Shown in pieces: positions 1-46,109 of a DNA stretch of 64,000 bases. The notes under the pieces are model-generated. The model was given only the letters and a program-made list of their open reading frames with translations, had not been told where the DNA came from and did not search any database. Position numbers and translations under genes: made by a program. The DNA comes from Octopus sinensis. Lineage: Eukaryota. Position 1 is the first letter of the stretch. Every line of letters starts with the position of its first letter. The stretch is from NCBI RefSeq assembly GCF_006345805.1, contig NC_043005.1:10044001-10108000 (forward strand), written 5' to 3'.

Positions 1-1135
1 AGGAGGCGTGACAATATTGACGATAGACTCAGCTGATAAACCGACTCGTCCCACACGTGACAGCAGTTGTTCGACATAAGCCCACAGGTCGGAAATTGTT
101 GGACACTGAACGAGTGCATGCAGAACGGTTCGTCGCTCTGACCGCATCTCGGGCAGGTCGGCCCCGTGTTTCTCGAGCCGTGTCTGTAGAGCTTATCCCG
201 AACGGGTAGCGCTTCTCGGTAGCACTGCCAGGCCAGGGATCTCTGGAAGTTGTCCATGGGCCCTGGCCCGAAAGTCGTCCCGAACAGGCGGGTCGGGTAC
301 TCCTCGTCGACGTCCAGGTTCGCCCCGAGCTCGTCGTCGTACCTCCCCTCCACTAAACCCCTATAGAATGCTTTGGTTGTGTTGAAGTCACTTAAGGTCG
401 ACCCGGACGGCAGAGTTGCTTGAGAGCAACGCGACACTCGCGGTGCCATTCGCCCTTCCTCGGCCTCTTTTGATCCACGACTGCAGTTCGGTCATGGAGA
501 CGAGCTGCGGGAAAGCGTGCCTCACAAACGGCGACCACACCTGTTCACCGTCGTCTACATAGAGCCAGAGATGTCGCAGTCTCAGCGCGTGTCTGCGCAT
601 CATCAACCACGGCATGCCCAGCCCTCCTTTTAACGGGTGTTGACAGCAAATGGATCGCCTGAGCATCGGGACGCATCCTTTCCACAAGAAGCGAAAGAGG
701 ATGCGTTGTAGTTTGGTGATGGTAGGGTCGGGACAAGGTACGACGGTCAGGCGGTAGTCGGTAGTATAGATGACGACGCGATGTACGTGTTCGCCACCTC
801 CGCTCGACCTTTTAGGGACAGTTTCCTCTCGGGCCATTGCCGGGCGAGTGACCACCCTACTCGTTATCTCGTTCCAGTTCTTCTCCACTTGGAGGTCCGG
901 ACCAAACCAGACCCCGAGCAAACTCAAACGGGCCGTCGGTCCAGCGTCCACGACGAGGCGCTGGTGGACGGCATGGGCTTGCTTCTCCAGTGCCTAGTCG
1001 CAAGCCCACTGACTTTTCCCGTTGATTTTCGCTCCTGTCACCGCTTCGTAGTTTTTCAGTGTCTCGCCGACCAGCTCGATGTGCTCGTGGCTAGACACTA
1101 TGACGGTGACGTCGTCCGCGTATGCAGACACGCTC
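1..1135 (-). mobile_element. Tx1/L1-clade non-LTR retrotransposon, 5'-truncated ORF2 fragment with frameshifts; runs off the window start
   Basis: The minus strand reads SVSAYADDVTVIV (RT YADD, ~1110-1121), LLGVWFG, LFRFLWKG, KGGLGMP and a CPRC zinc-knuckle region. It is near-identical to 13629-14270 in inverted orientation. The 5' junction abuts (TATC)n. Confidence 0.9.
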
Positions 1136-7562: not shown

Positions 7563-7797
7563 AAATATATATCAGCCATATATGCATGTGTGTGTGTGTG
7601 TTTGTACATGTGTATATATATATATATATATATCTATATATTATACATGTGTGTTTGTACATGTGTATATATATATATATAATATATTATATATATATAT
7701 ATATAATATATATATATATTATATATGCCACAGAAGCAGGGCAAAGCTGTATCACACGCGGGATTCGAATGAACGTGCAGGATTTCGTGGTAAGCAG

Positions 7798-9673: not shown

Positions 9674-10644
9674 TTAAATATATGTTCCGTCGGCAAGTTG
9701 GCGGAATGGTTAGAGAGGAAGGAAAATGTTTTGAGACTTTCTTCTGGTTGTTTACCTTCTGATTTCAATTCCCGCCGAGTTTACATTTACCTTTAATCTC
9801 CCCAGAATATAAAGAAATAAGTACCAGACAGGTAGTGGAGTCAATGCTTGTTCCTGAATTAGTAACTCTTTCGCATAACATATGCCACGCTTATGCATAT
9901 TTCTTCGAAAACACTCCCTAATATTTTACATTTTTTGGCGGGCCACCTGGCAAAGCACTTTCAACAAAAAAACTATTTTCTGTATAATTGCGAAATAATT
10001 CTACATGTAAGTATTATAAGCGCCTCATTCCCGTAAGTTAATTTTTAATTCTTTAGATTTTTTTATGAAGATTTCGAAAATCCGAGCATCTCACGTACCA
10101 CGCTGAAAGTGATTACGTACTTGACATTTTGGTTGTGTCTGCACATTACCGACATCTGTGCCACGGTGCAGGTAGAACAGCTAAAGATATTTAAATCATT
10201 CATGTTCCCCCGCTGACAACTATTTTTGTTCCTGATATATCGGTTACTTCCGTACATCACCGGCATCTGTTGTACGATATATATATATATATATATAAAC
10301 ATCAAAACATATTTTTCCGATTCGCTTTGCAATTTCAATGATGGAAGTATCGCTTGGCCTTAAACTCCTTTGTACATTTTGATAGCAAGAAAAATAAATG
10401 GTATCCAGTGATACAATAAATTATTCGTGTGCGAATATGTGTGTACGTGTGTATGTATAAGTGTGTATGTGTACATATGTGCGTGTGTGCATGCGTATGT
10501 GCGCGTGTGTGAGCGTGTGCGTGTAAAATATTTGTTTATATACCATATATATAAATATATATATATATACATACATACACATGTACATACATACATACAT
10601 ACATACATACATACATACATACATACATACTTACATTTACGTAG

Positions 10645-12433: not shown

Positions 12434-13468
12434 GTATTATATATTAAAGTGTTATACTAATTATCTTTTTTTAATAATTTTGATATATATTTAAAATAAT
12501 ATAAATTAATTAATCTTATGTATTGGCTTAAGTTTTTCATTGTATGATTTGCCTAATAGTGGTTTTATCTCTAATTTAATATAATATATTATTTTACTGT
12601 AAAATTGGATTCAATCCTAAATTTTTCCCTGTAAGTTTGGATTTATTCTCTAATATTTTTATTATATATATATATGTATATGTCTGTGTGTGCTCATATA
12701 TACAATATATACATACATACGTACGTATGTAGGTATGTATGTATCTCAATATACGACTTGATTTATTGTTATCTGTCTCTTCGTATTAGCTGTATTTCTA
12801 TATCATTGTATATATTATCGTTCTAAACAAGATGTTTTTCACTTGTATTAACTCATGCTCCTAATTGATTTGCATTAAAAAAATAGTATTTTCGATATCT
12901 CTGCGGAATATTTAACTATGTAATTACTGTCACATCTTATTTCTGAAAGTTAATTTTTAAATTCCATTTTAAACGTTGATTTATATGTTCGAGCATTCTG
13001 GGATAATATAAAAAAGATGGAGTGAATTAATGTTTTTGATATTTTAGTTGTTTCTCTATCTCACCGGCATCTGGTCGTTGGGGGCAAATAAACAATAAAC
13101 CATATTAGCGGTCTCCTTGGAATTTCACTGATAATGGTAGCATCTTTTTTCACACGTTTCTTTACTCCCAGTACAGGAAACATGAACTGTATTGGAAAAT
13201 AAGGTTGCTCGCGCACGCATGCGTGTGCGTGTTTGTGTGTGTGTGTGAGTGTACGGGCGCGCCTATAAGATCGCATTTCTGAAGCATGAAGAAGTTTTAA
13301 AATGTATCATTTTACAAAGTTGCTCAAATGAAAACGTATAAACAACAGAGCTGATAATACATCCAGTAAAAATCCTTTAAACACAAAAACTGGACAAGCC
13401 ACACACATACACACACACGCGCATATACACACACATCCATGTACATCTATCTATCTATCTATCTATCA

Positions 13469-13526
<58 letters not shown>

Positions 13527-13530
13527 ATTA

Positions 13531-13572
<42 letters not shown>

Positions 13573-13597
13573 CACATACACACACACAGACGCGTAC

Positions 13598-13628
<31 letters not shown>

Positions 13629-14909
13629 AAAAAGGAGGGCTGGGCATGCCGTGGTTGATGATGCGCAGATACGCGCTGAGACTGCGACATCTCTGGCTCT
13701 ATGTAGACGACGGTGAACAGGTGTGGTCGCCGTTTGTGAGGCACGCTTTCCCGCAGCTCGTCTCCATGACCGAACTGCAGTCGTGGATCAAAAAGAGGCC
13801 GAGGAAGGGCGAATGGCACCGCGAGTGTCGCGTTGCTCTCAAGCAACTCTGCCGTCCTGGGTCGACCTTAAGTGACTTCAACACAACCAAAGCATTCTAT
13901 AGGGGTTTAGTGGAGGGGAGGTACGACGACGAGCTCGGGGCGAACCTGGACGTCGACGAGGAGTACCTGACCCGCCTGTTCAGGACGACTTTCGGGCCAG
14001 GGCCCATGGACAACTTCCAGAGATCCCTGGCCTGGCAGTGCTACCGAGAAGCGCTACCCGTTCGGGATAAGCTCTACAGACACGGCTCGAGAAACACGGG
14101 GCCGACCTGCCCGAGATGCGGTCAGAGCGACGAAACCGTTCTGCACGCACTCGTTCAGTGTCCAACAATTTCAGACCTGTGGGCTTATGTCGAACAACTG
14201 CTGTCACGTGTGGGACGAGTCGGTTTATCAGCTGAGTCTATCGTCAATATTGTCACGCCTCCTTCCTTCAAACGGGAAGGAAGAGGTATTTTCATCATCC
14301 TTGTGGCTATGGCGAAAGAATGTATCTGGTGGACGCGTCTGAAAGGATTGGAGACAAACACTTTCCTCTCTGGTCAATCTCTCATCAACTTCTTCAAGTA
14401 CCACTTGAAAAGGAAAGTGAGAGTAGAGAGGCAAGTTTTGTCTAGCGAATGTTTTAAAAAAAGATAGGTGAATGTAGCAAGAATGGCACGTATGAATGAC
14501 GAAGCCATCTTGAGCATAATCCTATGAACCCAGAAATTGAAAACAGAGATTTGCTTATTTGCAAAAAAAAAAAAAAAAAAAAAAAGAAATATAAAATGTG
14601 ACTTCATTGACCGAGGTTACCGTGGTCTTTTCGGTAGGCTTTTCTTTCCACGGGTAAACCTCACCTGTCCTCCCCTTTACACTTCATATTGACATTTCTG
14701 TGATAACGATCCCTATTGATCAATTTTTTTTTCCTCTCCCCCCTTTTTTTAACCCCCCCTTTTTTGTCCTCTTTCTCTCCTTTTACGATCCCTTTTGATC
14801 GAAACATGCCCCTTTCATTTTTTTTTTTTTTTTTAAACCTTCAAAAGAAAAGCTCTACCTTGTAATTTGTTCTATCTGTGTGCAGCCCTGTGTGGCTAAT
14901 AAAGAAACA
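13629..14909 (+). mobile_element. Tx1/L1-clade LINE, 5'-truncated: ORF2 C-terminus plus 3' UTR
   Basis: Open frame KGGLGMP...CPRCGQSDETVLHALVQC (CCHC)...FKKR*. The TAG at 14465 is probably a mutated TGG, with the frame continuing to TGA at 14527. AATAAA at 14898, no poly(A), (TATC)n on both sides. Confidence 0.92.
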
Positions 14910-14933
14910 TATCTATCTATCTATCTATCTATC

Positions 14934-14964
<31 letters not shown>

Positions 14965-15102
14965 TATATATATATACAGACACATACACACACACAGACG
15001 CGTACATCTATCTATCTATCTATCTATCTGTCTATCTATCTATCTATCTATTTATCCATCTATCTATTTTTCGTTATATATATATATATATACATACATA
15101 TA

Positions 15103-15155
<53 letters not shown>

Positions 15156-15742
15156 TTACTACAATGTATGATAGCCGCCTTCCTGTCTGGCTGGATGCAT
15201 GCATCCATGCAAACATCTTACTTTTCAGTTTGTCGTCCTAATTTATTTTATCGCATCCTTTTGGATTATATATATTTCTGCCTCATTTCTGCATCATTCT
15301 CTATATTATCGATGTAAATGTAATTCTTTTTACATTATTGCGTCATCTCGCTAATGGCTTTCCACAATAAAAGTATTTTCAATTATACCATGAAATATTT
15401 GACTATATAATTACTAACCAATCTCATTTCCGTGAGGCAATTTTGAAATTTATTTTAATGTAGATTGACAAAGTATGAATGTTATCGCAAAATATTTGTT
15501 TACTTAATCGAAAGTATTTGTGTTCTAGATACTTCTGTTGTTTTTGTAACTCACTGGCACCGTTAGTAAGGTTTATATAAACAGCAAAGCATATTTACGG
15601 CTGTCTTTGTACTTTCGGTAAAGAAAATATCATGCGTTCTTAGATATTTATGTGCGACTACGGAGCAGAAATGGTAAATTGTTTTGAAAGGTTAAATATA
15701 TTCCATATCTATCCCTCTCAATATATACTTTGGCATTATATG

Positions 15743-16226
15743 AAGGCGGCGAGCTGGCAGAAACGTTAGCACGCCGGTCGAAATGCGTAGCTGTATTTCG
15801 TCTGCCGTTACGTTCTGAGTTCAAATTCCGCCGAGGTTGACTTAGCCCTTCATGCTTTCGGGGCCGATAAATAAAGTACCAGTTTCGCATAGGGTCGATG
15901 TAATCGACTTAATCCGTTTGTCTGTCCTTGTTTGTTCCCGCTGTGTTTAGTCCCTTGTGGGCAATAAAGAAATATATATTCCATATCTATCCCTGTCAAT
16001 ATATAGTTTGGTATTATATGAAGGCGGCGAGCTGGCAGAAACATTAGCGCGCCGGGTGAAATGCTTAGCGGTATTTCGTCTGCCGCTACGTTCTGAGTTC
16101 AAATTCCGCCGAGGTCGATAAATTAAGTACCAGTTACGCACTGGGGTCGATGTAATCGACTTGATCCGTTTGTCTGTCCTTGTTTGTCCCCTCTAGGTTC
16201 AGCCCCTCGTGGGTAGTAAAGAAATA
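15743..16226 (+). mobile_element. Two SINE-B copies in tandem, separated by duplicated target sequence
   Basis: Copies at 15743-15972 and 16021-16226; duplicated flanks at 15696-15742, 15974-16020 and 16223-16245. Confidence 0.9.
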
Positions 16227-16252
16227 TATAGTTTGGTATTATATGCTTGTGG

Positions 16253-23380: not shown

Positions 23381-23409
23381 AGATAGATAGATAGGTAGAT
23401 AGATGAATG

Positions 23410-23466
<57 letters not shown>

Positions 23467-23504
23467 GTAGATAGATGAATGGGTAGATAGATAGATAGAT
23501 AGAC

Positions 23505-23572
<68 letters not shown>

Positions 23573-23581
23573 GGATGGATG

Positions 23582-23620
<39 letters not shown>

Positions 23621-23641
23621 GGATGGATAGATAGATGGATG

Positions 23642-23704
<63 letters not shown>

Positions 23705-23713
23705 GGATGGATG

Positions 23714-23772
<59 letters not shown>
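23381..23772. repeat. (GATA)n/(GATG)n microsatellite
   Basis: Direct reading. Confidence 0.98.
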
Positions 23773-23773
<1 letters not shown>

Positions 23774-30204: not shown

Positions 30205-30550
<346 letters not shown>

Positions 30551-44894: not shown

Positions 44895-46109
44895 ATTCCA
44901 GATAAGCTAGTCACCGATATGTAACATTATAGGATGATTACGCCTCTCACCCACTTGGTTATAGGCCTGCTCGTTCAGGTCTCGCTGGTAGATAAACAAC
45001 AAATACAGCAACACTTTGTTAATCAAACCGCAAATGTTTGTTCGACATGCATGACACAGCAACCAAATCCGCTTCAAATCACAGCGTGCTGTCTTAAAGA
45101 AATTGTAAACGAAGAAAATAGTGCAGCTAAAGAAAAAGTAACGTTACCCAAGTAATGTTTTGTAGAAAGCAATCAAACTACATCCTTATCTTAAAATTGT
45201 ATGATTTTTGTCCCTAGTCAAGATAAATCAATGCCCTTCGTTCTTAGTCTCCAGTAAAGCACCATAATGTTACATAAATAGTAATGTAATGTATTCATGT
45301 ATTGATTGCTATCGAAAAGCAAAACCTGTTTTTCTCTCTTCCAAGCCTTGAGAGATGCTCTAATTGCCAGTGCATAATTCCAATGTCAAGGTGATCAGCA
45401 GAGATAAAACACACACACACGCACGCACACACACACACACACGCACACACACACACGCACACGCACACGTGCTAGTATATGTATATATATGTGTGTGTGC
45501 GTGTATGTGTACCTGTATGTGTATACGTGTATGCACGTCTGTATGTATACATATATATATATATATATGAATGTGTGTGTGTGTGCACTTGTATGTGTAT
45601 ATGTGTATGTACGTAGGTATGTATACATATATATATATGTATGTGTGTGTGTACTTGTATGTGTATAGTGTATGTATACATATATATATGAATGTGTGTG
45701 TGTACTTGTATGTGTATAGTGTATGTATACATATATATATGAATGTGTGTGTGTATTTGTATGTGTATATGTGTATGTACGTGTGTATGTATACATATAT
45801 ATATGAATGTGTGTGTACTTGTATCAGTATACGTGTGTATACGTATGTATATACGTATGTACATACATATGTGTATTTGTGCATATATGTGCTTGTAAGT
45901 GCGCATGTACCCAGTCCCTCACATTTAAAAATAAAACTGAATAATAACGATTAGACTTTATTTTTTTAACCTTGATCATAGAACTGCTTGATCAGAACTC
46001 GCCTGGGTTCAAACAATAACGTCAACGATAAACAGTGCTGGGCTCAGAGAATATACAATAAAATTCTCTCTATGTAGAAACACAACGAAACGTAGCAATG
46101 ATTGTTTTG

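Follow-up and report, generated by a model that had tools for sequence, protein, structure and literature searches.

A truncated Tx1-like LINE in an octopus TATC array lies between two copies of a compound microsatellite block

Several Tx1 elements are described as targeting microsatellites, namely Kibi at (TC)n, Koshi at (TTC)n and crocodilian elements at (TTCC)n or (TTTC)n, and the same account takes the flanking of >20% of copies by one repeat type as its criterion for such targeting (PMC4494074). The target-site duplications (TSDs) of APE LINEs are usually given as 10-20 bp (PMC6895275), and longer ones are also on record: 126 bp in R9 of rotifers (PMC6895275, PMC9977147), >50 bp in the majority of new Dualen insertions (PMC9977147), and >20 bp at many L1 insertions in one HeLa data set (PMC4245944). 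Tandem duplications linked to L1 have been reported (10.1101/2024.12.14.628481), and pseudo-TSDs that stem from existing duplications are discussed for HERV-K (PMC5488345). Since long LINE TSDs are already known, a long TSD at one copy would, even if true, be a known kind of outlier.

Here we analyse a locus of Octopus sinensis, within a window of 64,000 nucleotides (the whole stretch of DNA studied), at which a LINE lies between two copies of a microsatellite block. The feature is real in the assembly, and the element itself is unremarkable, a truncated Tx1-like LINE of a kind that targets (TATC)n. Its family is like Kibi, Koshi and the crocodilian elements in its APE endonuclease, reverse transcriptase (RT) and C-terminal zinc motif and in its insertion into a simple repeat, here well over the 20% criterion, whereas its target is (TATC)n/(GATA)n; the likeness is one of features. 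The duplication is similar in length to that of R9; in contrast, R9 belongs to the RLE type and inserts at a fixed position in rDNA, and the octopus element is of the APE type, its family having TSDs of mostly 8-25 bp. A LINE flanked by a duplication well >20 bp is common to Dualen, L1 and this locus; however, theirs were read against known pre-insertion sequence, while the octopus locus is read from the filled allele alone and its block is bounded by slippage-prone repeats. As with the HERV-K pseudo-TSDs, insertion between or within duplicated segments would mimic a long TSD, although the duplicated unit here is a compound microsatellite block of ~100 bp. In the literature searched (supplements, Repbase and subscription papers lay outside its scope), we found neither a Tx1 described as targeting TATC nor TSD lengths for one, and the main text of an O. 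vulgaris repeat paper lists L1-Tx1 families without mentioning target sites (PMC13282606). A TATC-targeting family is a modest extension of the known Tx1 targets.

An earlier note on this DNA had reported a 32-mer that occurs twice and a block 5' of the LINE that is repeated 3' of it, and both observations were confirmed at the level of the assembly (Table 1). With up to 3 mismatches allowed, the 32-mer has 2 matches in the window and 0 in 100 shuffles, and its exact matches in the 2.72-Gb genome are these two loci alone. The genome search also gave no paralogous empty site. The exact repeat covers 72 nt (13550-13621 and 14958-15029), or ~100-128 nt including the repeat tracts, 128 nt being the upper limit on the repeat diagonal if the six TATC units 3' of the element are all target DNA. 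The 5' copy has the structure (TATC)13-TATAT-TATC-(TA)18-core-(TATC)7-A and the 3' copy (TATC)6-(TA)12-A-(TA)9-core-(TATC)5-TGTC, so that the core is identical in both whereas all three repeat runs outside it differ. The first base of the element adjoins the end of the 5' copy, and its last base the start of the 3' copy. 3' transduction was ruled out as the source of the block: none of the other family copies has the 32-mer next to it, and the genome contains no third exact match. Two stretches that are 70% alike (12794-12972 and 15285-15458) were considered as part of the duplication and set aside as a likely old dispersed repeat, which has further weak matches at 9966 and 17348.

Table 1. 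Features at and around the LINE, in window positions
Feature	Position	Strand	Basis
Older, diverged unit copy: CA-rich spacer, GTACATC, start of first TATC tract	13407..13459	+	local alignment to 13564-13612
First TATC tract, (TATC)5 AATC (TATC)13	13446..13522	+	
5' block copy: TATAT-TATC-(TA)18, 32-mer core 13569-13600, (TATC)7	13523..13628	+	
Single extra A at the 5' junction; no microhomology	13629..13629	+	comparison with full-length copy L031
5'-truncated Tx1-like LINE: last 278 ORF2 codons (zf-RVT) and 3' UTR ending AATAAAGAAACA	13630..14909	+	PF13966, E 3e-8
3' block copy: (TATC)6, (TA)12-A-(TA)9, 32-mer core 14977-15008, (TATC)5	14910..15029	+	
Remainder of downstream TATC tract; variants absent from 5' copy	15030..15067	+	

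No LINE separates the older unit copy from the next unit, and of the 929 distinct TATC tracts examined, just 2 have the same 7-mer in front of them, both in the window; the unit was therefore probably duplicated once earlier, without a LINE between its copies. At the 5' junction, the A at 13629 fits neither the target phase nor the base found in the full-length relative and may be untemplated or a homopolymer error. The truncated end of the LINE has no TATC homology, and together with the extra A this would give the cDNA end no advantage in reaching the next tract.

The window LINE represents the 3' 1.28 kb of a 6.1-6.2-kb element and is 98.4% identical to the 3' 1,279 nt of the 6.2-kb full-length copy L031. 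It carries zf-RVT; RVT_1 was matched in L031 (E 5e-17) and the APE endonuclease in a further relative, L046 (Exo_endo_phos, E 1e-16), with L1 endonuclease structures as the best solved-structure matches for the family endonuclease. A zf-CCHC match in an upstream fragment of L046, where the frames are broken, reached 19.9 bits, just under the 20.8 cut-off, and three other fragments upstream of ORF2, also with broken frames, gave no family match. Among the homologues listed, 2 of 120 are named 'transposon TX1 149 kDa protein', none is named L1 and most are unnamed. The Tx1 identity proposed for the element thus holds as Tx1-like, the level set by the domains and homologue names. The family is large, with 4,230 exact genome matches to a 31-nt 3'-end pattern (at least 4,230 copies) and 1,925 to a 72-nt pattern. 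Compared with the majority of 59 close relatives, the window copy differs at 7 of 911 positions and is therefore young, and some of these private differences may be assembly errors; its ORF2 stop at 14465-14467 is also private. Two full-length variants occur, L031 and L046 (6.2 kb) versus L045 and L047 (6.1 kb), which are ~97% alike in the ORF2 region and whose megablast alignment ends in the 5' part (the first ~1.7 kb), suggesting a swapped 5' UTR/ORF1. A second family copy, 97% identical to full-length copies, occupies window positions 1-1135 on the minus strand, and its 5' junction abuts a (TATC)17 tract (1136-1203). Tandem SINE-like copies at 15696-16245 (repeats of 87-145 nt, 89-92% identical) end in AATAAAGAAAT, which resembles the last bases of the LINE.

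To describe the target, we used 168 copies with both ends, made up of the 32 closest by DNA search, 77 found with the 31-nt pattern (its first matches) and 59 found with the 72-nt pattern, the pattern-derived copies all coming from C1. Left out before counting were copies whose 5' end was not within the retrieved sequence, along with two loci that were rearranged, one that contained an N gap, and two near-duplicates. TATC lies at the 5' junction of 139 of the 168 copies, some of the other 29 having poorly placed junctions in older subfamilies, and after the 3' end in 86 of the 91 copies that had not been selected for TATC. The family therefore exceeds the >20% single-repeat criterion for microsatellite-targeting Tx1 elements and inserts into (TATC)n, in agreement with the target proposed earlier. 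An obligate TATC tail is unsupported: the full-length copy L173 (G000:C1:28046928-28054927) lies in a non-TATC site with a clean 11-bp TSD directly after its 3' end, although L089 has four extra units. Between the TSD and the element start of L173 there are ~19 nt of TATC-like sequence, as if its transcript had started within the upstream array of the donor. Copies are also stacked in one array: in 16 of the 168 (among them L009, L018, L032, L034 and L042), the 3' end of another family member lies no more than 400 bp upstream of the 5' junction.

A TSD within pure TATC is invisible, and interruptions of the arrays served as markers instead. Exact marker-anchored flanking repeats were found in 24 of the 168 copies; 19 are 8-25 bp long, and the other five measure 40, 50, 57, 78 and 116 bp. 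Another 116 copies have TATC on either side but no anchor; among these, the upper bound on the TSD is ≤30 bp in 94, 31-60 bp in 13 and >60 bp in 9. Short anchored repeats occur in 11% of family copies versus 2% of control cuts, and the short TSD is thus a real signal in the family. A geometry of ≥40 bp resembling a TSD was seen in 8 of 168 copies including the window copy and in 7 of 167 without it, namely L213 (48-50 bp), L038 (56), L228 (76-78), L012 (100), L188 (112), L215 (112) and L094 (176+). The survey of TSD lengths called for by the earlier note has therefore turned up some long geometries, but short TSDs are the rule; the measured lengths refuse a fixed long TSD as a family trait, and the family does not show the long TSDs in most insertions that mark R9 or Dualen. 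Four further candidates for long duplications, L039, L083, L089 and L113, resolve to short TSDs combined with a nested SINE, a tail or pre-existing repeats, and L095 has a TSD of 16 bp. In the 3' flank of L039, a tRNA-like SINE sits within the TSD region of the LINE and has its own duplication of ≥22 bp of interrupted TATC.

As a control, we cut 125 element-free TATC arrays at TATC positions (105 retrieved out of 120, with 22 added and 2 removed for overlap); an initial set of 22 arrays had given 0 matches and was too small, hence the enlargement. Loose straddling blocks occur in 15/168 family copies versus 4.1% of control cuts (p 0.005), strict locus-specific ones in 10/168 versus 3.3% (binomial p 0.08), and exact anchored repeats >30 bp in 5/168 versus 1.1%. 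The slippage-tolerant geometry of ≥40 bp is present in 7/167 copies (window copy excluded) versus 1.7 expected when counted per array (P 0.008); weighting the controls by cut sites raises the expectation to 3.3 (P 0.09). Markers that occur no more than twice number 3 versus 0.8-1.6 expected (P 0.08-0.24), and in 4 of the 7 other cases the marker is repeated at least 3 times anyway. By array size, which can be matched only imperfectly as the insertion itself lengthens arrays, arrays with >200 bp of TATC give 7/71 (9.9%) in the family versus 7.8% in just 12 control arrays, and the size class of the window copy (100-200 bp) gives 0/57 other copies versus 0.7% of control cuts. Altogether, a small tail of long TSDs in the family is possible on these counts.

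The earlier note had proposed that second-strand resolution in the next TATC tract produced a TSD of ~120 bp. The geometry fits, but such resolution is not a family habit: 24 copies have a tract-spacer-tract arrangement downstream, and the spacer also lies upstream in two of them, the window copy and L228, where it was already repeated upstream. Spacers on both sides thus occur in 1 of the 23 other copies at risk versus a mean of ~5% of cuts in 34 element-free arrays. The contrary case, two blocks without an insertion, is seen as background in element-free arrays, with blocks of ≥40 bp resembling a TSD at 1-2% of cut sites; the present locus holds the older unit copy. LINE-independent block repeats are present in the element-free arrays of the window at 23381-23773 and 30205-30547 and in L274, L313, L316 and L327. 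The block duplications beside L083, L002 and L196 cannot be TSDs; L083, for instance, has a 406-bp block repeat upstream and a TSD of its own of 8 bp, and a filled unit precedes an empty one at L002, the reverse order being found at L083 and L196.

Slippage before insertion, a long TSD and a later exchange all predict the same sequence, and alleles alone separate them. As family TSDs are mostly 8-25 bp, doubling of the block is likelier by repeat slippage than by insertion, and we slightly favour, with a probability of roughly 45%, replication slippage between two TATC tracts that doubled the block, after which the LINE entered the middle tract. By slipping back from tract 2 into tract 1, replication would have doubled the spacer, leaving an empty site of the form tract1-spacer-tract2-spacer-tract3; the first-strand nick would then have fallen in the middle tract (tract2), on its GATA strand, target-primed reverse transcription would have inserted the LINE with a short TSD hidden in pure TATC, and subsequent slippage could have let the TA and TATC runs drift. 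Besides the short anchored TSDs and the bounds of ≤30 bp in most unanchored copies, this reading is supported by spacers that straddle the element no more often than in controls, by strict blocks and weighted geometries that stay near background (p 0.08 and P 0.09), by the similar rates in arrays >200 bp, by the block duplications that are not TSDs at L083, L002 and L196 and in the two window arrays, and by the older unit and a truncated 5' end without TATC homology to steer the joining. Both breakpoints would fall in TATC by construction under slippage, as they would under exchange. Against it stand the exact fit of the block to a TSD, the identical cores, which would be expected if the block were of the same age as the insertion (7/911 private differences), and the family excess of long flanking repeats over unweighted controls (7 vs 1.7), of exact repeats >30 bp and of loose blocks; moreover, a background of 0.7% in the 100-200 bp class makes the event rare here too, and the size-matched control for large arrays consists of 12 arrays only.

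A true long TSD, exceptional and not typical of the family, is a possible but doubtful explanation. The first nick would lie in the upstream TATC tract, the top strand would break in the following tract, 100-128 bp further downstream, and fill-in would duplicate the block. The abutment of block copies on both ends of the element, the seven other copies with compatible geometry, the excess over unweighted controls and the precedents of R9, Dualen and L1 (PMC6895275, PMC9977147, PMC4245944) are consistent with it, whereas the excess is non-significant once controls are weighted by cut sites or matched by array size, the marker is repeated at least 3 times in four of those seven cases, no other copy among 57 in the size class shows the geometry, and the block copies differ in all three repeat runs. 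It is improbable that a second block was added after insertion by unequal exchange or template switching, in which a filled chromosome, through the TATC tract beyond the 3' end of the element, would engage the upstream TATC tract on an empty homologue. Exchange across 25-50 bp of homology should be rarer than slippage on the same strand. Such an exchange would yield the same structure with a young identical core, and the arrangements at L002 (filled then empty) and at L083 and L196 (empty then filled) are as it predicts, but a LINE that entered one of two units already present would explain them equally well; a pseudo-TSD model akin to this exchange has been considered for HERV-K (PMC5488345). 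That an error-prone assembly merged filled and empty haplotypes into one consensus is very improbable: all four public runs do give another base at 13149, at full depth, and young full-length copies have broken frames, yet the core is exact in both block copies, contigs of four runs cover the unique flanks on each side, and no obvious mechanism would duplicate this block alone.

On the present evidence, an apparent 100-bp TSD in a microsatellite target should not be trusted at face value. It seems unlikely that, in a few percent of family insertions, the second strand is resolved in another TATC tract at a distance of 40-230 bp, with duplication of entire blocks; thousands of copies would in that case lengthen and re-seed their own target arrays. 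If some proportion of copies did have long TSDs, a LINE with site preference would enlarge its own microsatellite target, and interrupted repeats would serve as a natural ruler for where the second strand is nicked, a step that is poorly understood.

Two of the copies show inverted sequence at their margins. The 3' flank of L089 (G000:C1:28723807-28731806) holds a 316-bp inverted copy (98%) of its 5' flank, which is either a fold-back next to the insertion or an artefact of the assembly. At L211 (G000:C1:134307198-134315197), an inverted 5' end of the element lies directly upstream of a truncated copy, which resembles a twin-priming inversion or may be a neighbouring copy in the opposite orientation. 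Elsewhere in the window, TA/TG microsatellite blocks form higher-order repeats of 51-76 bp, with no family LINE, at 7595-7699, 45476-45652 and 45617-45779.
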